A stretch of 64,000 nt of DNA from a virus, in IMG/VR virus record IMGVR_UViG_3300033056_000008, positions 46,387 through 110,386 of that record. The stretch is one strand, 5' to 3'. Below, piece by piece: positions 11,291 through 46,399 of the stretch. Numbering within the stretch: the stretch's first letter is position 1; each line of letters opens with the position of its first letter. Under the pieces are notes generated by a model that was not told the DNA's origin, did no database searches, and saw only the letters and a program-made list of their open reading frames with translations. The translations under genes were made by a program, and so were the position numbers.

Positions 11291-12769
11291 CTAAATAGTT
11301 AATGGTTGTTTATCCTCAATTTCCTGTATCTGATCCAACAACTCTTTCAATCTATCGATTACTAAGCCATTTACATTAGTGATTAACCATGGACATTCAT
11401 TTCTATCTCTTTCCCACATTTCCTTAATAGCTTCACATTCTTCGTCACTTATTAACTTCAACACAGGAAGACCTTCGAGTTGTCTTAGCCTATTCACTTC
11501 AATTTCAGTATGTATTAATTCTTCATATAAAAATTCTCTAGCTTCTACCGTAACTGTTCCTTTATTCTTATGTATTACTCCATATTTATCAGTGTAAAGT
11601 TTACCGTTTCTTTTATGTCCTGACTTGGTTATGAACTTTATCTGTTCATTTACTGCAGCCACTTGCTTTAGTACATGACTTCTTGCTTTTCTATTTTGTC
11701 CTTTAGGTTTGAAAGGTTTATAGTCTCCCATTACTTTAAGCTGCATCATTCTGTAGTTTGTTAAAGGAGTCATCCATTGATTACTCTTAGACATCTCTTC
11801 AGTTGATCTATCTTTTAGTATTACAGGACAAGTCCAGCAACCAAACCTTGCTCCGCATGATTCTGATTGAGATGCCTTTGCTTCAGTCCCTTTAGGATTG
11901 GTGAATCCACACTCTCCTGTAGCATCCCTGTATAATTTCCTAACATCATGTGTAGATGACCAAGCTAACCTTTCTCTTTGTAAATACTCCCAAACATCTT
12001 CTATTGTGAAATCAACAATAGGCATAAATGTATTGGAAGATTTAATATGCACATGGTCTCCAATTTTCTTATTTAAATCATCATTATCAGACCACTTCTT
12101 TATCGAAGCTTTACGTTTAGCACTTTCACTTAGCCTAACGCCAATTAGAATAAATGAAGGGTTAATCTCTAACAGTTTTTCATTTTGTGGCTTCAGCTTT
12201 AAACGATCTGTACACCATCTACCAGCTCCATTGTTTTGTGGTAAAAAATATCCTCTACCTAATATCAAATAAAAGTATGAATTCTTGAGTGGTCGTTTTA
12301 CAATCTCTGCTGATATTGGTAAATCAGTGTTCATAATAAATTCATGAAACTTATCTACCTGACTGTGCATATATTCCTCAAGGTTAGGATTCTCAACAAC
12401 TGTATCGGACATAATTACATATACATGCCTTTTTCTTTCTTCTGGTTTGAGTTCCTGTAGCATATCAACAACTAAACCTAGAACAGTAGTTGAGTCTTTC
12501 CCACCTGACCACGCAATTGCCCATGGTCGTTCATCATCTTTATTTAGGTACAGTTTTTTTAGATCTCTCTTGATTTCTAAGATTAATTCTTCAAATGATT
12601 TCTTTAAGTTTTCAATTTCAGTATGTAAATCCTCTATTTTAATTTCCATCTTAGTTAACTCATTGCTATCTTCAATTACTTTCTTATCTTCCTCAAATTG
12701 AGTTATATCCTTTTCAATTGCCTTTATATTATGTAAGTTTCTTTGCCAGCGCTTATTCAACCTTTTCAC
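11291..12769 (-). CDS. PAPS-reductase family, DndC-like PP-loop/Fe-S protein
   Basis: AWSGGKDST PP-loop, SDTVVENP, RWCTDRLKLKP, IGVRLSES, CGARFGCWTC cluster motif; N-terminal coiled coil. Confidence 0.85.
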   Translation of the reverse strand: MKRLNKRWQRNLHNIKAIEKDITQFEEDKKVIEDSNELTKMEIKIEDLHTEIENLKKSFEELILEIKRDLKKLYLNKDDERPWAIAWSGGKDSTTVLGLVVDMLQELKPEERKRHVYVIMSDTVVENPNLEEYMHSQVDKFHEFIMNTDLPISAEIVKRPLKNSYFYLILGRGYFLPQNNGAGRWCTDRLKLKPQNEKLLEINPSFILIGVRLSESAKRKASIKKWSDNDDLNKKIGDHVHIKSSNTFMPIVDFTIEDVWEYLQRERLAWSSTHDVRKLYRDATGECGFTNPKGTEAKASQSESCGARFGCWTCPVILKDRSTEEMSKSNQWMTPLTNYRMMQLKVMGDYKPFKPKGQNRKARSHVLKQVAAVNEQIKFITKSGHKRNGKLYTDKYGVIHKNKGTVTVEAREFLYEELIHTEIEVNRLRQLEGLPVLKLISDEECEAIKEMWERDRNECPWLITNVNGLVIDRLKELLDQIQEIEDKQPLTI

Positions 12770-12920
12770 CTTCGGTTTCTAATATGTATGTGCATTTGTT
12801 TTTAAAGTCCACGACCACTTTAACTGCATCATTATCCCAATTTGCAATATCCAGAGAATCATATTGACAATTAACCTTTTGTATTAATTTATTTCTTTTA
12901 TCGAATAATTTCCATTCCAA
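12753..12920 (-). CDS. 55-aa hypothetical protein (not in ORF track)
   Basis: TTG start behind AAGGTGATG; MEWKLFDKRNKL...EGEKVE; fills the gap between neighbours. Confidence 0.5.
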   Translation of the reverse strand: MEWKLFDKRNKLIQKVNCQYDSLDIANWDNDAVKVVVDFKNKCTYILETEGEKVE

Positions 12921-12921
12921 T

Positions 12922-13290
12922 TCACATCACCTTCTTTAAAAACTTAGTGAGTCTTATTACCCCATCTTCTAAGTTAGAATATAGATATAGTGAATTACAC
13001 GCAAAGAATGGGTCTATATAACTCTTTTCCCAAACGGTGATAATTGGAATGCTGTTTTCACTTGCTACTGCACACTCCCACGCAGCTCCTAGTGGCATAG
13101 GATTTGTTTGTTCAATGTAGCAAAAAACTAAATCACAATTTCTAATAGCTGTTAAATCATCTTCAACAAATCTAATTGCTGAAACATTTTGCTGTGAATG
13201 CTCTCTGGGATCGAAATAACTAACTCCTTCAATCTTAGGCATGTTATCTTGCCATCCAGTATACATTCCACCTGATAAATAAATCTTCAT
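12922..13290 (-). CDS. Nucleoside 2-deoxyribosyltransferase / RCL-like nucleotide N-glycosidase
   Basis: IYLSG, FDPR, DDLTAIRNCDLV, GAAWECAVA, IPII; start at ATG 13290 behind GAAAGGA. Confidence 0.75.
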   Translation of the reverse strand: MKIYLSGGMYTGWQDNMPKIEGVSYFDPREHSQQNVSAIRFVEDDLTAIRNCDLVFCYIEQTNPMPLGAAWECAVASENSIPIITVWEKSYIDPFFACNSLYLYSNLEDGVIRLTKFLKKVM

Positions 13291-13602: not shown

Positions 13603-14118
13603 TTATTTATTAGTCATATCAACTCCGATAATTGAATAACCAGTTAGATCCCTGTAGGGAGATTCGCTATCGCCATCCCCTGAAGGATTATTAAATATTC
13701 TATTTTGCTTATCCATCATCCTAACAGTAAGCAGCATATGTTGAATTAAATCACCAGGTATCGTGTATGTATTTTCATCTGTTTTGTATCTCTCCATTAG
13801 CACCAACATCATCTGGTATGTAGCATCCACTGAAGATCCATATTGCTTATTCTTTTCATCTGTAAACTTCCCAAGTTCTAATCCAATCTGACCAAACTTC
13901 CCTAGTTCTTCTGCCATCTGCACATCTCCCAATCTATCTAACTCAGATTCTCTAACTTTAAACTTATTTCCTGATTCATCTCGTACTATGTACTCGTATT
14001 TCCCTGTTGATAATCGTTCATGTATATGTACTGTCTTTCCAACATCATCTGGTAAATATAGTTTGGCTGATTCATTAACGATTAACGGCATATCTAATTC
14101 ATACAACCATCTTTTCAC
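13603..14118 (-). CDS. Protein with C-terminal DUF1599/Nmad1-like helical domain
   Basis: EKNKQYGSS...RMMDKQNRI...ESPYRDLTGYSIIG resembles the KNxDYG...DKxxR...DTxxDLxxY pattern. Confidence 0.6.
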   Translation of the reverse strand: MKRWLYELDMPLIVNESAKLYLPDDVGKTVHIHERLSTGKYEYIVRDESGNKFKVRESELDRLGDVQMAEELGKFGQIGLELGKFTDEKNKQYGSSVDATYQMMLVLMERYKTDENTYTIPGDLIQHMLLTVRMMDKQNRIFNNPSGDGDSESPYRDLTGYSIIGVDMTNK

Positions 14119-14956: not shown

Positions 14957-17260
14957 TTAAGCTGCTGGCAGTTGTACTTCTGCATCTTTCTTATCAGCCC
15001 AAGTGGTTTCTGTAAGCTCAAGATCAACAACTACTGGAACTTGCATCCAATCTACGTCCTCCATAATTTGTTTAATATGAGGGAAAATCCACTCTTCACC
15101 TTCATAAACAAGGAATTGTAGTTCATCATGTATGTTAGCTAAAAATTTAGTTTTACAGTTATTTTTCTCCAGAAACTCCCCGATTTTAACAACATAGTCT
15201 TTCAAGCAATCTGCACAAGAACCTTGAACTAGATAATTCCCAACCTTATATGCTTTTTCTGTATTAGTTAGGTAATAAACCCTCCCATACATGTTAGTCG
15301 CATAGTTATTCTTTTGGACTTTATTACTTACCTGTCTTTGATAATACGATACCTCAGGGAATGTATTAGACCACCCAGACACTAGGGCGTTAGCAATTTC
15401 CATAGATACCTCTAAAGCTTCGGATGCTTTCTTTGCACCCCCACCGTAGTTACGCATGAAATTAAACATTTTCCCTATGTATCTCCAAAACTTCTTAAAT
15501 GATTTCTCATCTACCGGAGTTTCCTTGTCGTGCTGATATTGCTTATATTTGCTTTCACATAAATAATTTAATGCCATTAACGTATTATGAGAAGTTTCAC
15601 TATGTACATCAGTAGGTGTCCAATAATCTCCATTCTCTAATAACCATACGGAATTACCTTCTGGCGTTTTCTCTGACCATCTCATACGGTCTTTCTTAGT
15701 ATCAAACTGATACTCTTCGCCAGTTATGTAGTGTTTACATTTGAAAGGCATATAAGCTCTGCAGAGATTTAAATCAGGTTTACCAAGTAATACTGTATAA
15801 TTAGCCTGTGCCCTCAATTCAATTTGAGATAAGTCAAAGTACGCAATCTTACTGTACTTTCCTCCTTCTACAATAAAGGCTCTCCTAGGAGAAAATATTT
15901 CTAGTTCAACCGGTGCTTTCCCTTCACCATGTTCTCTTTCGTATTTTTCTCCTTCTTCAGTAAGAATTCTTTCCTTTGGAAACTGCTGTGCATCTGATCC
16001 AAGACGACCTGATACAGTATTGAATTGACCGTATTGAGTATAGAATTTCCCATCGTATTCAGCTACTTCTATAATACGAGAGATATACGTAGACTGCCAT
16101 TTTTCTAGCCTTCTCAGCCTTGTAATAAGTTGTGAAACTCGATTATCTTTGTGTTTCTTTAAGAAAGATTTATCAGTAGTACTCGGTCTCTCTCCAAGAA
16201 GACTTTCAAAGTAATCCCCAATAATTTTATCTTGCGAAACGGTAAAGTTCTCGCCAACAGTCTCCCACAACTCCTCATATAACTTTTGGATTTCGCTATC
16301 ACATTTATCGAAACAGTCCTTTAGGTATTCCATATTTACCTTCATACCGGTTCTTTCCATCTTAAGTAGTTCGATTATCAATTTATTTTCTCTTTCAAAT
16401 AATTGTTTTTGTTTCCTTTTTAATACTGTTGGATAAAACATTTCTACAATCTCTAATGTGTAGATACCGTCACCGTGCACATACTCCATCATGATATTTC
16501 TATCTACCTCAGAATAATCAGCAAAAGGATTTTCTTCCATCCATTTAAAGTATAATTGCTCTACTTCTACAGGAACTTTTAGCCATCTTTGCTTACGCTC
16601 CTTAGTAAAAAAATCCATATCATTTCGTGATTTAATTTTATAGGCTTTTTTTATCATGCCTATTCCCCAGCCAATTTCCTTATATGGTTTAAGGAGTTCT
16701 TTTAATAACAAACGTTTCTTATCGTTTATTTTTCGTAATTCCTTTTTAACTTCTTTTTCAAATTCGGCTGCTCTTGGATCAATATACTTCTCTGCTACTT
16801 TCTTAAGTCCAAGGAAGTCTCCGCCGTCCCTAGCTGACACCGCATCAAATGACATTCTGCAAATACCCATAGTGTCAGCGATATTCTTTAGTCTATAAAC
16901 CTTCTCTTTTTCAACTCCTCCGTTTATTACCATATGTAAATCGTACTTAACGTTATGTCCTACAACCATTTGTATACTTTTAGACAGATCGATAACCTTA
17001 TTTAAGAATTCCACATTATGTTCAAATGCAAATACTTTTCCTTTGATTCCATCTTGCCGTTTATTTTTTGGAAGTAACCAACCAAAAACCCACATAAAAG
17101 GACGATCTTTTATTATATGTAATCCCGTTGTCTCAGAGTCAAAGACTGCTAGTTTAGGAGTATCTTGTTCAAACATAGTTTTAATTTCTTCAAAATCATT
17201 CGTCCAGTATTTCTTATATCTTTCTGTAACTTCCGTTTCTAATTTAGGAGTTACTAGCAT
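14957..17260 (-). CDS. Family A DNA polymerase with 3'-5' exonuclease
   Basis: FDSETTG (ExoI), GHNVKYDL (ExoII), DLSQIELR (motif A), RYIGKMFNFMRNYG (motif B), IHDEL (motif C). Confidence 0.93.
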   Translation of the reverse strand: MLVTPKLETEVTERYKKYWTNDFEEIKTMFEQDTPKLAVFDSETTGLHIIKDRPFMWVFGWLLPKNKRQDGIKGKVFAFEHNVEFLNKVIDLSKSIQMVVGHNVKYDLHMVINGGVEKEKVYRLKNIADTMGICRMSFDAVSARDGGDFLGLKKVAEKYIDPRAAEFEKEVKKELRKINDKKRLLLKELLKPYKEIGWGIGMIKKAYKIKSRNDMDFFTKERKQRWLKVPVEVEQLYFKWMEENPFADYSEVDRNIMMEYVHGDGIYTLEIVEMFYPTVLKRKQKQLFERENKLIIELLKMERTGMKVNMEYLKDCFDKCDSEIQKLYEELWETVGENFTVSQDKIIGDYFESLLGERPSTTDKSFLKKHKDNRVSQLITRLRRLEKWQSTYISRIIEVAEYDGKFYTQYGQFNTVSGRLGSDAQQFPKERILTEEGEKYEREHGEGKAPVELEIFSPRRAFIVEGGKYSKIAYFDLSQIELRAQANYTVLLGKPDLNLCRAYMPFKCKHYITGEEYQFDTKKDRMRWSEKTPEGNSVWLLENGDYWTPTDVHSETSHNTLMALNYLCESKYKQYQHDKETPVDEKSFKKFWRYIGKMFNFMRNYGGGAKKASEALEVSMEIANALVSGWSNTFPEVSYYQRQVSNKVQKNNYATNMYGRVYYLTNTEKAYKVGNYLVQGSCADCLKDYVVKIGEFLEKNNCKTKFLANIHDELQFLVYEGEEWIFPHIKQIMEDVDWMQVPVVVDLELTETTWADKKDAEVQLPAA

Positions 17261-38242: not shown

Positions 38243-39268
38243 TTACAGACGTGCCTTCGATTCAGTAACTTCTACTCCATATAAATTCAACAGGTTCTCA
38301 GGATTAATAAACTTAGCCATGAAGTTTCTATTGTATTGTACATCTCCATTTTGTTGTCTCATTGTACTGTAATTATAATAAGCTCCAATTTCCTGATATA
38401 ATTCAGTGCTTAAATTGGTATACTTCTTTTGATTAAATATTAAATCGTAAGCCATATAAAGCATGCCACTTTGCATAACAGTTTTAGAAGTAAAATATTC
38501 TAAGTCTAAGAAATCTTTTAAACGACTAATTCGACCATATAAAGCCGATGGACTTACACTAGACCCCTCTTTTAAACGGGCACTTGTAGTGTTTTTCAAA
38601 ATTAAATCAGAAGGTACTAAGTTCTGTGCCTTCCCAAATTTATCATTGCTTCTATAATATTCTGTAGCATTATGAGCTCTTTCTAAATAATACAAAACTC
38701 TATCGTTAACTTCTCTAGTTACAGTAATAACACTGTCTGTTAACTTGTCCTCTCTATTATTAATTGTTACAATTCCGTTTTTCCAATCAATATCATAGTA
38801 AGACAAATGGGTTAACTCTTTAAATTCTTCACCAATGATTCCCTGGAACATCAATGCTAACATAGCTTGATCTTGTGCATTTGGAGTTTCCTCTAATATA
38901 TCTTGAAATTCATCATAAGAATAATATAATTTTCTATTGTTATCTAAAGTAGATTTATAAAAATTATCATCTGCAGCTAATAACGGACTTATATTATTTA
39001 ATCTATATCCATTTTCTATCATCCATGAAATATAAAAGTTTAAATAATTACCTTTTCTTTTTGCATCTGCTAGAGAAAATGGTCTTATACTTTCTAAAAC
39101 GTTTCTAATTTCATCTCTTGTGAAATCTGATATATCCTTATCTCTATTCTTCTCATATTTAGCAATTTTCTTAAATAAGTAAAAAACATTGTGACGACTT
39201 CCTTCAGAATCAGCATAAGCGTCATGTAAAAAAGTCTCTTTTATTTTTTGATTATACAATTCGCTCAT
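38243..39268 (-). CDS. yopR: Tyrosine-recombinase-fold master repressor (YopR/MrpR/SroF-like), catalytically degenerate
   Basis: SAM-like N-terminus (YNQKIKETFL...F.KIAKYE...KDI.DFT), DQAMLALMFQGI.GE; no TGxR or HxxR; third gene of the yopP-Q-R synteny. Confidence 0.8.
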   Translation of the reverse strand: MSELYNQKIKETFLHDAYADSEGSRHNVFYLFKKIAKYEKNRDKDISDFTRDEIRNVLESIRPFSLADAKRKGNYLNFYISWMIENGYRLNNISPLLAADDNFYKSTLDNNRKLYYSYDEFQDILEETPNAQDQAMLALMFQGIIGEEFKELTHLSYYDIDWKNGIVTINNREDKLTDSVITVTREVNDRVLYYLERAHNATEYYRSNDKFGKAQNLVPSDLILKNTTSARLKEGSSVSPSALYGRISRLKDFLDLEYFTSKTVMQSGMLYMAYDLIFNQKKYTNLSTELYQEIGAYYNYSTMRQQNGDVQYNRNFMAKFINPENLLNLYGVEVTESKARL

Positions 39269-40638
39269 ATCTCTACTCTATCCCCATTCAAATTAATATT
39301 CTCGAAAATCTCTTTGAGTGATTTCTTAATTTTATCATTATTATATATCTTACTATTCACTCTTCCTTTTTCATCAATTAATCCTATTTCTTCCCAAATT
39401 GGATTGGTTCTATTGAAATCAATTTGCTTAATCAAGGAACTTACTTCTTTTGCTTTCACTTTCTTTTCAAACATTTTTCTTGCTAATGTGATATATCCGA
39501 TAAACATAACATTAGAATTAATCAGAGAAGTTTTATTTATTTCTTGAGCTTTTGTTAAAAATTCTTCTTCATTTTTACCAATTAAGTAATTAAAGAAATC
39601 CGCTAAGTATTCCCCTACATCTTCAGCGTCAATTCTCTTATGCAGATCAAATTCTTCTTCAATAGTATCTGACAAAACAGAATATGATACTAACTCTCCG
39701 TGTTCAATAAATGGTCTTGACTTAGACGATATTCTACCTTTTAATTCAGAATCCTCTTTTAGTATTTGTGCAGATATATCTGCAAATCTGTTTGCAGATA
39801 ATTCTTTAATTCGGTTTTCATTAATTGGTGAAGCTTTTGCTAGTTGCGCTTGATACTGTTGAGCTTTTTTCTTATTATAATTAGTTAAAAGGATTGAGAA
39901 ATTAAAATTCAATTCTGGATCTACTGTTAAAGCATTTTGTGCACCTGTAATCCTGTGCATTCCATCTACGATTGCAATTTTTGTACCATCCGTTATAGTT
40001 AATGTTCTTTTCTTAGCATCATAAATTAACTCATCTCCGTGAGTAGCAGTTCTTGGCATAGCGTTAAGTACTAAAGTAGTTGTAACGAGTGTACCATCCA
40101 AAAGATGCTTTGTTATTTCTTCTACATTTTTCATAATTATTGTTGGTTGTGCAACTACGATATTTTGTCTTTTAACTAAGGTTTTCTCTCGTTGTAAATC
40201 TGAATCATAATATAAAATTCCGCTATTTAGTAATTTATTTATAACTTTAATATCTAATACTATTTGATAAGATGAATTTTGCATTAAGGATACGTTCTCA
40301 ATTACAATAGGATAATCTGTAGTTTGTTCTACTGTCTTAGTGTGCCCACTAAATTGCCTAGAATCATCTATTTCAGATTGATAAAAAAATTCTTCTGGAT
40401 CTATTACATCAACTCTTGTTTTAAAATAAACTTGTTCGCTAAACAACATCAATTCCCTGATATCTAATTCAGGAATTCTTTCTTCGGGATTATTAAAAAT
40501 CCCTTGTACATTAGTCATATCATGACTCTTTAATAATTTATCACTAATATCTTCAACTTTATCTTTATATCTACGTAATTCAGTTTGTTCTAACACTTGA
40601 ATTAAGTTACTTTCTAAGATAGCTCTAGATTTCTTCAT
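39265..40638 (-). CDS. yopQ: DGQHR/DndB-like ParB-superfamily protein (YopQ/SroE-like)
   Basis: IVDGMHRITG; between the two recombinase-fold genes. Confidence 0.78.
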   Translation of the reverse strand: MKKSRAILESNLIQVLEQTELRRYKDKVEDISDKLLKSHDMTNVQGIFNNPEERIPELDIRELMLFSEQVYFKTRVDVIDPEEFFYQSEIDDSRQFSGHTKTVEQTTDYPIVIENVSLMQNSSYQIVLDIKVINKLLNSGILYYDSDLQREKTLVKRQNIVVAQPTIIMKNVEEITKHLLDGTLVTTTLVLNAMPRTATHGDELIYDAKKRTLTITDGTKIAIVDGMHRITGAQNALTVDPELNFNFSILLTNYNKKKAQQYQAQLAKASPINENRIKELSANRFADISAQILKEDSELKGRISSKSRPFIEHGELVSYSVLSDTIEEEFDLHKRIDAEDVGEYLADFFNYLIGKNEEEFLTKAQEINKTSLINSNVMFIGYITLARKMFEKKVKAKEVSSLIKQIDFNRTNPIWEEIGLIDEKGRVNSKIYNNDKIKKSLKEIFENINLNGDRVEI

Positions 40639-40726
40639 AGCTTCACCCACCAAATTCTCTATATATCGTAATTTAATTTTATTATAACGAACTTTACATG
40701 TAAACCTTTTATCATTTTATGATAAT

Positions 40727-41803
40727 TTATTTTCTACACTCTTTTTCATAAAATCTTTTAATTTCATTTTTAACTTTTGAGCTCGAACTCATAATAAAAA
40801 GCTTAAACTGCTCTATTGTCATATCCTCAATAAAGTCCATCTCGATTTCTTTATCCATTAAGATGCCTGGCATATTAAGATAATCTTTATCTTTGTCCAT
40901 ATAATGTTTTACTGATGTGTTAATATTGCCATGGTGTAATTGTCTTTGCACTCTTTTTAAATCCCTATTTCGCTCGTAGTCCCAATCTGCTGCAACCCCT
41001 CGAAAACTATGGAATACAATTCTTCTATCTCCTACAAATTTTACCTTCTTAAGTAATCTCTTCATCATGTCATTTACTCCTGATACAGATAACTTAAACA
41101 ATAACTCTTGATTACCCTTCCATTTTGGCACATGTATGTTAGATAAGTTAGAAATTTTTTTATATAAATCAATACTAATTGGATTTTCTTTATCTTTGTA
41201 TTTCTTTTCTGTTAATTTATCAACATGAACCAATACTACCCCTTCATCCTCAAGTACTTCAAAATTATCAATTGTTAATTTAAGTAATTCTGAAAGTCTA
41301 AATGAAGTTCTTATTGCTAATTTACATAGTAACTGTTTCATTTCTGCTAAATTCTTCTCAGTATGTGGGACTAAGCTAATTAATGTTTCTGCCTCTTCAA
41401 AAGTAAGGTTATCATAGGATTCAGAATCATCCGGTAAACTATTCAAATTAAATATTCCTAAGTTTAGTTCTAGATACACCTTTAATTTTGTTGCAAATTT
41501 TTTAGTAAACAAACTTTTTATTGATCTAACTTTTTTATTTATCGTATTGTTTGAATTACCTTTAAGCTTTAGTTCACTTCGGTATCTCACTAAATCATCT
41601 TGTTCAATATTTGTTATATCTAATGGAGTTAATAATTCAATTGGCTTATTAGGAAAGATAATATCAAAGAATTCGTTTATTGTTCCTTTATATGAAGCAA
41701 GGGTACCGGTTTTACCTTCTTGTTTTAAAGTTTCATAAAAAACTTGGATATCATTGTATACCTGGTAACTATGTAACGCTTCAAGTTTAGGACTAGTTGA
41801 CAT
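40727..41803 (-). CDS. yopP: Tyrosine recombinase (YopP/SroD-like) with intact catalytic set
   Basis: RTSFRLSEL (R), FHSFR (HxxR), LHHGNINTSVKHY (H, Y); 358 aa. Confidence 0.85.
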   Translation of the reverse strand: MSTSPKLEALHSYQVYNDIQVFYETLKQEGKTGTLASYKGTINEFFDIIFPNKPIELLTPLDITNIEQDDLVRYRSELKLKGNSNNTINKKVRSIKSLFTKKFATKLKVYLELNLGIFNLNSLPDDSESYDNLTFEEAETLISLVPHTEKNLAEMKQLLCKLAIRTSFRLSELLKLTIDNFEVLEDEGVVLVHVDKLTEKKYKDKENPISIDLYKKISNLSNIHVPKWKGNQELLFKLSVSGVNDMMKRLLKKVKFVGDRRIVFHSFRGVAADWDYERNRDLKRVQRQLHHGNINTSVKHYMDKDKDYLNMPGILMDKEIEMDFIEDMTIEQFKLFIMSSSSKVKNEIKRFYEKECRK

Positions 41804-41993
41804 ATCGCTTACCCCCTTCAAAACTTTCTAATTTATTTATTCTATTTTCAAGTATTTTTACAATTGTTTTGAATATCATTAAGTTTTTTTTCATTATAGC
41901 TAAGTTATTATGTTTAGAACCTTCTTTTACCCATTCGATTAAATTATGATTTGATACATCTAATTCTAATTTTCTAGGTTTTACAATATGCAT
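41793..41993 (-). CDS. 66-aa first gene of the repressor operon
   Basis: GGAGAGGGG RBS, ATG 41993, overlaps the yopP start. Confidence 0.6.
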   Translation of the reverse strand: MHIVKPRKLELDVSNHNLIEWVKEGSKHNNLAIMKKNLMIFKTIVKILENRINKLESFEGGKRYVN

Positions 41994-42113: not shown

Positions 42114-42229
42114 TACACAATAAATTATTATTGACACAATTTTTCTTACCAACTTATCCCTTCTTATCCTTTTCTCCACTATATAAACAACTCTTTACCT
42201 GCTTTATAATAGTATATGAGGTGTTTATA

Positions 42230-43057
42230 ATGTTTATTTCTCCTATGTTACTTCAAAAATCAGATCTTCCTTTTGATGATTCCTCATTTATAACGGAACT
42301 TAAATGTGACGGTATAAGACTAATATTGTCTAAATTCAACGGTAAAACTAAACTCTATACTCGTCATAATAATGAAGTAAGCTCACTCTTTCCTGAGTTA
42401 CTTAATTTAAACATACCGGATAATACTGCGATAGATGGTGAGATTATTGTTACTGATGACAAAGGCAAGCCGGACTTCGAGGCAATGATGGAAAGATTCC
42501 AATCTAAAAAGTCATTATATCAGATTTCCTATGTAGTATTTGATGTCATGTATTATAAGAATGAGAAAGTCACAAACAAACCTCTTCTAGAGCGTAAAGA
42601 AATATTAGATAAAATTATCCCTATAGATACTCCATTACTAAATAAAGTTCAATGGATACCTGGAAATGCAACACAATATTTTGAATTAGTTAAGCAGCAA
42701 GGATTAGAAGGTATTGTACAGAAGAAAGATAACTCCACTTATGAAATTAATAAGCGGTCACAAAGTTGGCTCAAAGTGATTAATTACCAATACGAAACTG
42801 TTAAGGTAACTGGTTTACGTAAAGATAAATTTGGAGTTATGTTAAACTTTGAGGACGGTAGATATGCCGGTGTATTAGAATTTATGCCTAAAGCAGAAAG
42901 AGCTAAGTTATACAGGAAGTATAAAGAGTTAATCACCAGTGAGAGTGATAAATTTATTTACTTAAATCCTCAATTATGGATAAAAGTAAAATTTCGAAAT
43001 CTAACTAAAAAGAATTTATTGAGAATACCATCCTTTGTTGAATGGGTTAAGGAATAA
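42230..43057 (+). CDS. ATP-dependent DNA ligase (LigB/YoqV-like)
   Basis: ISPML, ELKCDGIR (KxDG), IDGEII, VVFDVM, GLEGIVQK, WLKV, LRIPSF. Confidence 0.9.
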   Translation: MFISPMLLQKSDLPFDDSSFITELKCDGIRLILSKFNGKTKLYTRHNNEVSSLFPELLNLNIPDNTAIDGEIIVTDDKGKPDFEAMMERFQSKKSLYQISYVVFDVMYYKNEKVTNKPLLERKEILDKIIPIDTPLLNKVQWIPGNATQYFELVKQQGLEGIVQKKDNSTYEINKRSQSWLKVINYQYETVKVTGLRKDKFGVMLNFEDGRYAGVLEFMPKAERAKLYRKYKELITSESDKFIYLNPQLWIKVKFRNLTKKNLLRIPSFVEWVKE

Positions 43058-46005: not shown

Positions 46006-46399
46006 TTGCTACCTCCAATTCTTTAATATAAGGATCATTTTATTGGATTTCATTATTTTTTAAAATTTCATGCATTTCATTGAAGAATAAACTAAGTTCT
46101 AGACAGTTTTCTACAGACAATGAATGAGAAAAATATTTATCACCTAAGAAGTTTCTCCTGTGAGCACCGTGTCCTAAACCTACTATGTATACTTTATCCA
46201 TTTAATTTTCCTCCTTGTCTAATTTTACCTTTTACAACAATTTCAACATTTTTGTCTAACTTAACATCTGTTCTCAATCGTCTAAAATCCCACTTTGCAT
46301 CAAACTCACAAGTTGCTGGAATTTTAACAATGTCTTTCTCATTAACTACGAATACATACATATTCATTAAGTTTAACTCTTCTAAAATAAATGTTTTAT

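Follow-up and report, generated by a model that had tools for sequence, protein, structure and literature searches.

A DndC-family protein encoded apart from DndD and DndE in an SPbeta-like provirus, a candidate phage counter-defence enzyme with a small cysteine-containing partner

In DNA phosphorothioation, IscS, DndC, DndD and DndE make up a linear chain of interactions (PMC4611135), in which DndC carries an Fe-S site and the loop that reads the target motif, and DndD and DndE form a ring around DNA (PMC12193691). DndC binds DndD through residues 433-482 and its C-terminal helix, and the substitutions L458D/E462A/R471A abolish this binding (PMC12193691). Relatives of these enzymes also occur in phages. 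In Vibrio, a phage protein in which a PAPS-reductase domain is fused to a Dam methylase (p0018) was moved along with a neighbouring gene of unknown function and allowed a sister phage to escape host Dnd (Piel et al., 10.1101/2021.05.05.442762). A 2026 survey found phage homologues of DndC/SspD in Aca-regulated anti-defence operons (PMC13551039), and other authors still regard phage 'PAPS reductases' as puzzling metabolic genes. The present analysis concerns a DndC-like gene (11291..12769, minus strand) in a 64,000-nucleotide stretch of IMG/VR virus record IMGVR_UViG_3300033056_000008 (positions 46,387 to 110,386 of that record), referred to below as the window. Its product belongs to a clade of Bacillales phage proteins that keep the catalytic residues of DndC and are encoded apart from DndD and DndE, and its most likely role is in phage counter-defence.

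The gene is an uninterrupted open reading frame (ORF) of 492 codons when read from GTG 12769. Its product scores 246.1 bits with the NCBIfam DndC model TIGR03183 (E 6e-73, profile positions 2-369 of 447; 244.9 bits in a genome-wide profile search), 249 bits with the PADLOC DndC model and 257 bits with the provisional model PRK06850. Hidden Markov models (HMMs) for cysH, PRK02090 and APS reductase give only 20, 14.7 and 13.8 bits against cut-offs of 165, 154 and 235, and those for SspD and BrxP give 23.7 and 28.5 bits. The Pfam match is the generic PAPS_reduct domain (44.7 bits), the PHROGs label is 'PAPS reductase', and at 489-492 residues the protein departs from the size and single-domain architecture of CysH (about 210-250 residues). 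Profile scores thus place the gene in the DndC family of PP-loop/Fe-S proteins, outside CysH and SspD. An initial annotation, made from the letters alone, had listed the motifs SGGKDS, DTxVENP, RWCTDRLK and GARFGCWTC and called the last much closer to DndC than to CysH; all four are present in the translation, the second as DTVVENP and the fourth within CGARFGCWTC, the HMM comparison bears the assignment out, and in the tree described below the protein groups with DndC.

The segments of the DndC-like protein on which the comparison with canonical DndC turns are the following.

12545..12769, minus strand: N-terminal helical hairpin/coiled-coil extension, residues 1-75 (from structure prediction and alignment)
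12491..12508, minus strand: PP-loop SGGKDS, residues 88-93, an ATP pyrophosphatase motif invariant in both clade alignments
12212..12259, minus strand: variant specificity loop GRGYFLPQNNGAGRW followed by Cys186, residues 171-186 (from mapping to canonical DndC)
11828..11911, minus strand: Cys-rich segment with Cys287 (GECG) and Cys305, Cys311 and Cys314 (CGARFGCWTC), equivalent to canonical Cys262, 273, 280 and 283

The alignment used DndC of the Salmonella dndBCDE cluster and clade members, with numbering after E. coli B7A DndC (PMC12193691). All five DndC cysteines are kept, canonical residues 146/262/273/280/283 corresponding to Cys186/287/305/311/314, and these cysteines and the PP-loop are invariant in 29 clade members and canonical DndC. 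In DndC, C146, C273, C280 and C283 are the ligands of the [4Fe-4S] cluster and C262 is a fifth conserved cysteine (PMC12193691); the CxxC dyad is described as specific to DndC and as lacking in BrxP (PMC12839542). The specificity loop GRGYFLPQNNGAGRW exceeds the canonical GYPAPTRSFRW-C146 (G135 to W145) in length by two residues and differs from it at the core; in a loop survey, a minority of canonical DndCs had a loop of the same length. Its retention, with strong conservation inside the close clade, speaks for an enzyme that reads DNA rather than for a passive decoy, and the strictly conserved ATP site, Fe-S ligands, Cys dyad and DNA loop together point to a working enzyme acting on DNA. At the other end, the protein stops near canonical residue 462, has K, T and a gap at the positions of L458, E462 and R471, and has no terminal helix; as aligned, both published DndD-binding surfaces are missing.

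Translation probably starts at TTG 12760, which is preceded by GAAGGTGA and gives a protein (M-NKRW...) of 489 residues, the same length as the closest homologues; GTG 12769 has a poor ribosome-binding site. The AlphaFold2 (AF2) model of the whole protein is confident (predicted local distance difference test score, pLDDT, 87) and consists of an N-terminal hairpin, a PP-loop core of the PAPS-reductase branch and a helical C-domain. Its nearest solved folds are CysH, APS reductase and CysD (Z 12-15), with the [4Fe-4S] thiolases TtuA and NcsA also among them, and sequence and profile searches of the PDB returned no DndC structure, just marginal matches to CysH and LarE. The coiled coil noted in the initial annotation as an N-terminal addition is predicted as a helical hairpin (residues 6-74, pLDDT >90) whose structural matches are coiled coils only, but by alignment it is confined to a sub-clade of 475-505-residue proteins and is missing from relatives of 414-440 residues.

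Close homologues, 47-71% identical to the window protein, are plentiful in Bacillales genomes and metagenomes. Across about 200 loci surveyed with iterated HMMs for DndB/C/D/E, dndD (usually with dndE) lies immediately downstream of about 74 of 80 genomic DndC genes, compared with 2 of 80 viral loci, and DndD/E linkage was found at none of the Bacillales orphan group's 31 non-redundant loci. In a FastTree phylogeny of 119 rows (local support values, no outgroup), the window protein falls in a 25-row clade with a local support of 99, every row of which is without DndD/E and comes from Bacillales phages or prophages. This clade is deep, with identities within alignment A2 falling to about 47%, and stands apart from the clade linked to DndD as well as from two further orphan clades, made up of proteobacterial long forms and of the 'PAPS reductases' of Mu-like phages. 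By topology it would be sister to DndD-linked DndC, in a tree that has no outgroup and carries no polarity.

Within the clade the neighbours differ while the slot of the gene is consistent. When neighbours were clustered across the 31 loci, none was kept across phage backbones besides a small ORF of 55 codons. Four relatives (B. subtilis, B. thuringiensis, Rossellomorea and a Halobacillus plasmid-phage) lie in prophage replication/nucleotide modules without dnd partners. In Paenibacillus siphophages the DndC-like gene follows DnaB/DnaC-like loader genes and precedes YopX or the small terminase, sometimes beside a Dam methylase; elsewhere its neighbours are three N4/N6 methylases (L206) or integrase/TerL (L214), or it precedes a pair of C5 methylases (L212). 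These are slots where phages keep DNA-modification and anti-restriction genes. In three relatives of short or long form (L004:11293-12305, L006:11555-12462 and L007:11931-12642) the gene is followed by a small sigma-70 region-4 protein and an unknown protein of about 140-210 residues, possibly late-gene regulators at a module boundary. The sigma-like neighbour was considered as a functional partner and rejected, as it is absent from the window and forms no conserved cluster; its position was judged a module-boundary coincidence.

The neighbour that does travel with the gene in other backbones is the small ORF.

12753..12920, minus strand: ORF of 55 residues with an invariant Cys18 in the motif VNCxYDS (from sequence, homologues and AF2)

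This ORF begins 2 nt past a nucleoside 2-deoxyribosyltransferase (NDT)-like gene, with GAAGGTGA in front of it as a good ribosome-binding site, and its end, stop codon included, shares 8 nt with the DndC-like gene read from TTG. Homologues adjoin or run into the start of the DndC-like gene in seven other phage loci (L007, L171, L206-L209 and L214), whose backbones differ (PolA, PolIII-alpha, ParA plasmid-like and small siphophage). Searched against 27,553 small ORFs from 211 sequences (the fetched loci together with the window and its genome), the family HMM matches these ORFs only. The family comprises 48 clusters among 5.8 billion proteins, all unannotated, and for at least 15 of them the longest contig has exactly the same length as that of a DndC-like homologue. 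Residues M1, W3, C18, Y20, D21, D24, K42 and I46 are invariant, and the AF2 model (pLDDT 90) shows a ββαββ fold with Cys18 at a helix N-cap. A Pfam search with the family gave no match, and a fold search gave generic GB1-like ββαββ resemblance only (best Z 4.7, Foldseek E 0.1). We infer that the protein may act as a sulfur relay or adaptor. The conserved and translationally coupled partner contradicts the 'single-gene' modification proposed in the initial annotation, and the description of the DndC-like gene as an orphan holds for DndD, DndE and a desulfurase, none of which the provirus encodes, but not for the 55-residue protein.

At two loci the small protein comes after another PP-loop enzyme, of about 310 residues; the two enzymes are 67% identical to each other and only distantly related to the window protein. 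In a Paenibacillus lautus prophage (L210:4051-6067), an enzyme of about 310 residues from this PAPS-reductase family, the 55-residue homologue and a ScoMcrA-type nuclease with a sulfur-binding domain and an HNH domain, a reader of phosphorothioate (PT) DNA, stand in a tight row. In a phage island (L212:4118-9176), two PAPS-reductase-family genes, one of 310 residues with an intact PP-loop and one of 399 residues with a degenerate SCSFGIDS loop, flank the gene for the small Cys protein and are followed by two C5 DNA methyltransferase genes.

An association with host Dnd systems was examined in 17 carrier host species, represented by one genome per species, and in two order-level background samples of 401. 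A bona fide DndD, scoring above the curated cut-off, is present in 7 of the 17 carrier species compared with 29/401 and 23/401, or about 6%, of the background. With known carriers taken out of the background, a Fisher test that ignores kinship and rests on small numbers gives an odds ratio of 11 (p = 4.5e-5), and a comparison for DndD within one family gives 2/4 carriers versus 8/132. The BREX marker PglZ, used as a control, shows no enrichment (1/17 carriers, 15/201 background). DndH lies beside the dnd cluster in three of the 17 carriers, all of them DndD-positive, and in two genomes (G007 and G009) the host's own canonical dndC is next to dndD on a different contig from the prophage copy. 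The Halobacillus carrier host is without DndD. The enrichment in Dnd-positive hosts, together with the published anti-Dnd precedent, indicates counter-defence.

The provirus record from which the window is taken is 178 kb long and SPbeta-like, on the basis of its yor-type replication genes and its MrpR/YopQ/YopP cassette. The features considered around the DndC-like gene and elsewhere in the window are these.

12922..13290, minus strand: NDT-like gene, immediately upstream of the 55-residue ORF (PF15891 25.9 bits and PF05014 22.2 bits, both below gathering cut-offs)
13603..14118, minus strand: YorP-domain protein of 171 residues (Pfam YorP, 27 bits)
14957..17260, minus strand: family A DNA polymerase PolA (SPbeta yorL-like), at the head of the replication run (Pfam DNA_pol_A)
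39265..40653, minus strand: DndB-like (DGQHR) gene between an MrpR-like repressor gene and an integrase-family gene, in a yopR/Q/P layout (profile matches)

The polA gene has 75% nucleotide identity to that of Bacillus phages Goe11/12/14. Upstream of the DndC-like gene, on the same strand, are genes for the YorP-domain protein, a 3D-domain protein, PolA, a RecJ-like protein, a primase and a DnaB-like helicase, in agreement with the minus-strand run shared with the polymerase that had been pointed out initially; downstream are small unknown genes and then the ribonucleotide reductase genes nrdE/F. The absence of dndD, dndE and dndA, first noted by inspection, extends to the whole 178-kb record, in which profile searches found no DndD, DndE or Aminotran_5 (DndA/IscS cysteine desulfurase). 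No C5, N4/N6 or Dam-type DNA methyltransferase was recognisable in the record either, and the DndC-like gene is its single PAPS_reduct gene.

Several other loci in the record were observed in passing. The C-terminal half of the 171-residue YorP-domain protein has a weak likeness (BLASTP E 7e-4, 25% identity) to a DUF1599/Nmad1 protein whose gene, in the Halobacillus element L008, lies upstream of the DndC-like one; as this is a single weak pairwise match and the Pfam DUF1599 model gives none, the link was set aside. The record has two DndB-like (DGQHR) genes. One (39265-40653) lies within the window, in a cassette 27 kb from the DndC-like gene in which the flanking genes (at 38243-39268 and at 40727-41821) comprise an MrpR-like repressor gene and an integrase-family gene. 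This DndB/DGQHR protein (ParB superfamily) is the equivalent of SPbeta YopQ and, given that yopQ belongs to the core genes of SPbeta-like phages (PMC10516654), is probably unrelated to the DndC-like gene. The other (PF14072 148 bits, 406 residues) lies outside the window near the record start (record positions 1-2905), on the same strand as a gene for a dGTPase-like protein with HD and HD_assoc domains, truncated by the end of the record, and one for a GIY-YIG nuclease; the trio may be a small defence/anti-defence module or host flank. An ATP-dependent DNA ligase gene (42131-43057, plus strand) is a rare long plus-strand ORF in the nearly all-minus window and may be compared with ligB of SPbeta-like phages.

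The reading favoured here, tentatively and with chances judged a little short of even, is that the protein is a DNA sulfurtransferase independent of DndD and DndE that marks replicating phage DNA, allowing it to escape Dnd-type restriction. Bacillales phages would have uncoupled a PP-loop ATP pyrophosphatase that carries a [4Fe-4S] site and a reactive Cys dyad from the DndD ATPase and the DndE clamp, and would produce it together with the replication genes and the translationally coupled 55-residue single-Cys protein. A host cysteine desulfurase would mobilise sulfur to the Fe-S/Cys site, possibly via the small protein; the enzyme would read DNA by its own variant specificity loop and write a PT-type mark on replicating phage DNA, and marked progeny DNA would evade restriction that senses missing PT marks. 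The location in a replication/DNA-modification slot of a provirus without a DNA methyltransferase counts in support of this reading, as does the occurrence of the small partner family beside a ScoMcrA-type PT-DNA-binding HNH nuclease. More doubtful is the proposal that the 55-residue protein and the enzyme constitute a minimal, self-sufficient system for marking DNA with sulfur in which DndD and DndE play no part, sulfur coming from a housekeeping desulfurase via Cys18, by which temperate Bacillales phages would counterfeit or pre-empt the PT self-mark of the host.

Several points weigh against a DndD/E-independent marking enzyme. PT formation in vitro has so far been obtained only with the full DndCDE complex (PMC12193691, PMC4611135), and PT writing independent of DndD/E is without precedent. 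The window protein scores below the equivalog cut-off of TIGR03183 (246 versus 290.4 bits). A tblastn search with it at E 1e-5 found no Vibrio phage, which makes the Vibrio precedent a remote homologue. The enrichment in Dnd-positive hosts comes from 17 species and from statistics that ignore phylogeny, and 10 of the 17 carrier hosts are without DndD, so the gene is not restricted to Dnd-positive hosts. The interpretation first proposed for this gene is partly supported overall; within it, DNA sulfur modification or an anti-Dnd role is the best-supported reading, with new support from the Dnd-host enrichment and the Vibrio precedent.

The same enrichment would suit a phage enzyme that joins the host DndD-DndE and cysteine desulfurase, and so raises the level of PT marks that fast-replicating phage DNA carries at the host motif; the known interaction chain from IscS to DndE (PMC4611135) offers it a place, and the dnd clusters of G007 and G009 are unlinked to the prophage. 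This is improbable, as the C-terminal helix is gone, L458, E462 and R471, which are needed for DndD binding, are not conserved, and Dnd-positive hosts have a DndC of their own. The loss of the DndD-binding surfaces, combined with the lack of DndD in most carrier hosts, argues against such a simple insertion into host DndDE. An inhibitor or decoy, which would soak up desulfurase persulfide or occupy PT sites and so disturb PT marking or DndFGH sensing, leaving phage DNA unmodified, was suggested in the initial annotation; it accords with the association with Dnd-positive hosts and with the loss of DndD-binding surfaces alongside retention of the IscS-facing Fe-S site. It is nevertheless quite unlikely, given that strict conservation of the PP-loop and the specificity loop over a deep clade implies selection for catalysis and that less host PT would leave unmodified phage DNA exposed to DndFGH.

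Other sulfur or adenylation chemistry has a slim chance of being the true function: the product could be a thiolated DNA base, or a deoxynucleotide precursor incorporated by the phage polymerase, with the neighbouring nucleotide genes as its pathway. TtuA and NcsA, PP-loop/[4Fe-4S] enzymes that are structural neighbours of the model, thiolate nucleobases, and nucleotide genes do occur nearby (NDT-like in the window; dNMP kinase, ThyX, dUTPase, MazG and DUF1599/Nmad1 in relatives). Such neighbours are, however, ordinary in phage replication modules, vary by phage and are not conserved across the clade; the likeness to Nmad1 is weak, the DndC-specific Cys dyad and DNA-reading loop are retained, and the association with host Dnd would be left unexplained. 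It is very unlikely that the protein regulates late transcription in the manner of IbrA, a PAPS-reductase-like 'co-activator of prophage gene expression'. In three of the four relatives first compared, the gene is followed by one for a small sigma-70 region-4 protein, and in small siphophages it lies where the early and late modules meet, but late-regulator genes are naturally found at such a boundary, in the window no gene of sigma type comes after it, no ParB/IbrB-like gene is adjacent (the nearest DndB/ParB-superfamily gene is that of the yopPQR cassette, 27 kb off), and DndC models score best. An auxiliary metabolic gene for an assimilatory PAPS/APS reductase (CysH), boosting host sulfur assimilation, is barely credible: the Pfam match, the PHROG 'PAPS reductase' labels and the closest solved folds are what such a role would predict, whereas the cysH and APS-reductase HMMs stay at 14-20 bits against cut-offs of 154-235, and the protein is twice the size of CysH, groups with DndC and is located in a replication module.

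Phage 'PAPS reductases' are widespread and are routinely mis-annotated as sulfur metabolism. The clade offers three handles: the retention of all catalytic elements of DndC, with loss of the surfaces that tie it to DndD, which makes DndC chemistry independent of DndDE a directly testable question; a previously unannotated 55-residue Cys partner; and a specific statistical link to Dnd hosts. If the pair writes PT alone, it would be the smallest PT system known, of use as a tool, and would clearly exemplify how a phage can counterfeit the epigenetic self-mark of its host.

Compared with DndC/DptC, the window protein is about 31% identical over the core and has in common with them the PP-loop, the RWCT and GECG cysteines, the CG..FGCWxC cluster/dyad, the loop before RWCT and part of the helical C-domain; it differs in its extra N-terminal coiled coil, in an insert around residues 375-400, and in lacking the last 80-100 residues or so, which bind DndD in canonical DndC. 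SspD and BrxP, the PT writers of Ssp and BREX type 4, belong to the PAPS-reductase family and work with partners other than DndD/E, but the window protein scores weakly with their HMMs and keeps the Cys dyad that BrxP does not have. The 'PAPS reductases' of Mu-like and temperate proteobacterial phages (PHROG 424 and 12882; Pseudomonas phages phiC725A and Dobby; those of Aca operons) are stand-alone PP-loop enzymes of the same superfamily with a proposed anti-restriction role; they are just 24-27% identical to the window protein and form a separate, long-branched clade. SPbeta MtbP and other self-protective methyltransferases have the same presumed role, marking phage DNA against host restriction, with an unrelated fold and chemistry, and we take the slot of MtbP to lie between the replisome and ribonucleotide reductase genes, as does that of the DndC-like gene in the window. 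Vibrio p0018, like the window protein, has a phage-borne domain related to PAPS reductase and DndC and is without DndD/E, and it is tied to the escape from Dnd that is proposed for the window protein; in p0018, however, a short PAPS domain (residues 4-175) is fused to a Dam methylase, whereas the window protein has no fusion, a full DndC-like core and a host of another phylum. A phage PAPS-reductase-domain protein with anti-Dnd activity, and stand-alone phage DndC-like genes as a class, were thus already known; to these are added here a Bacillales clade without the DndD-binding surfaces, its 55-residue partner and its enrichment in Dnd-positive hosts.

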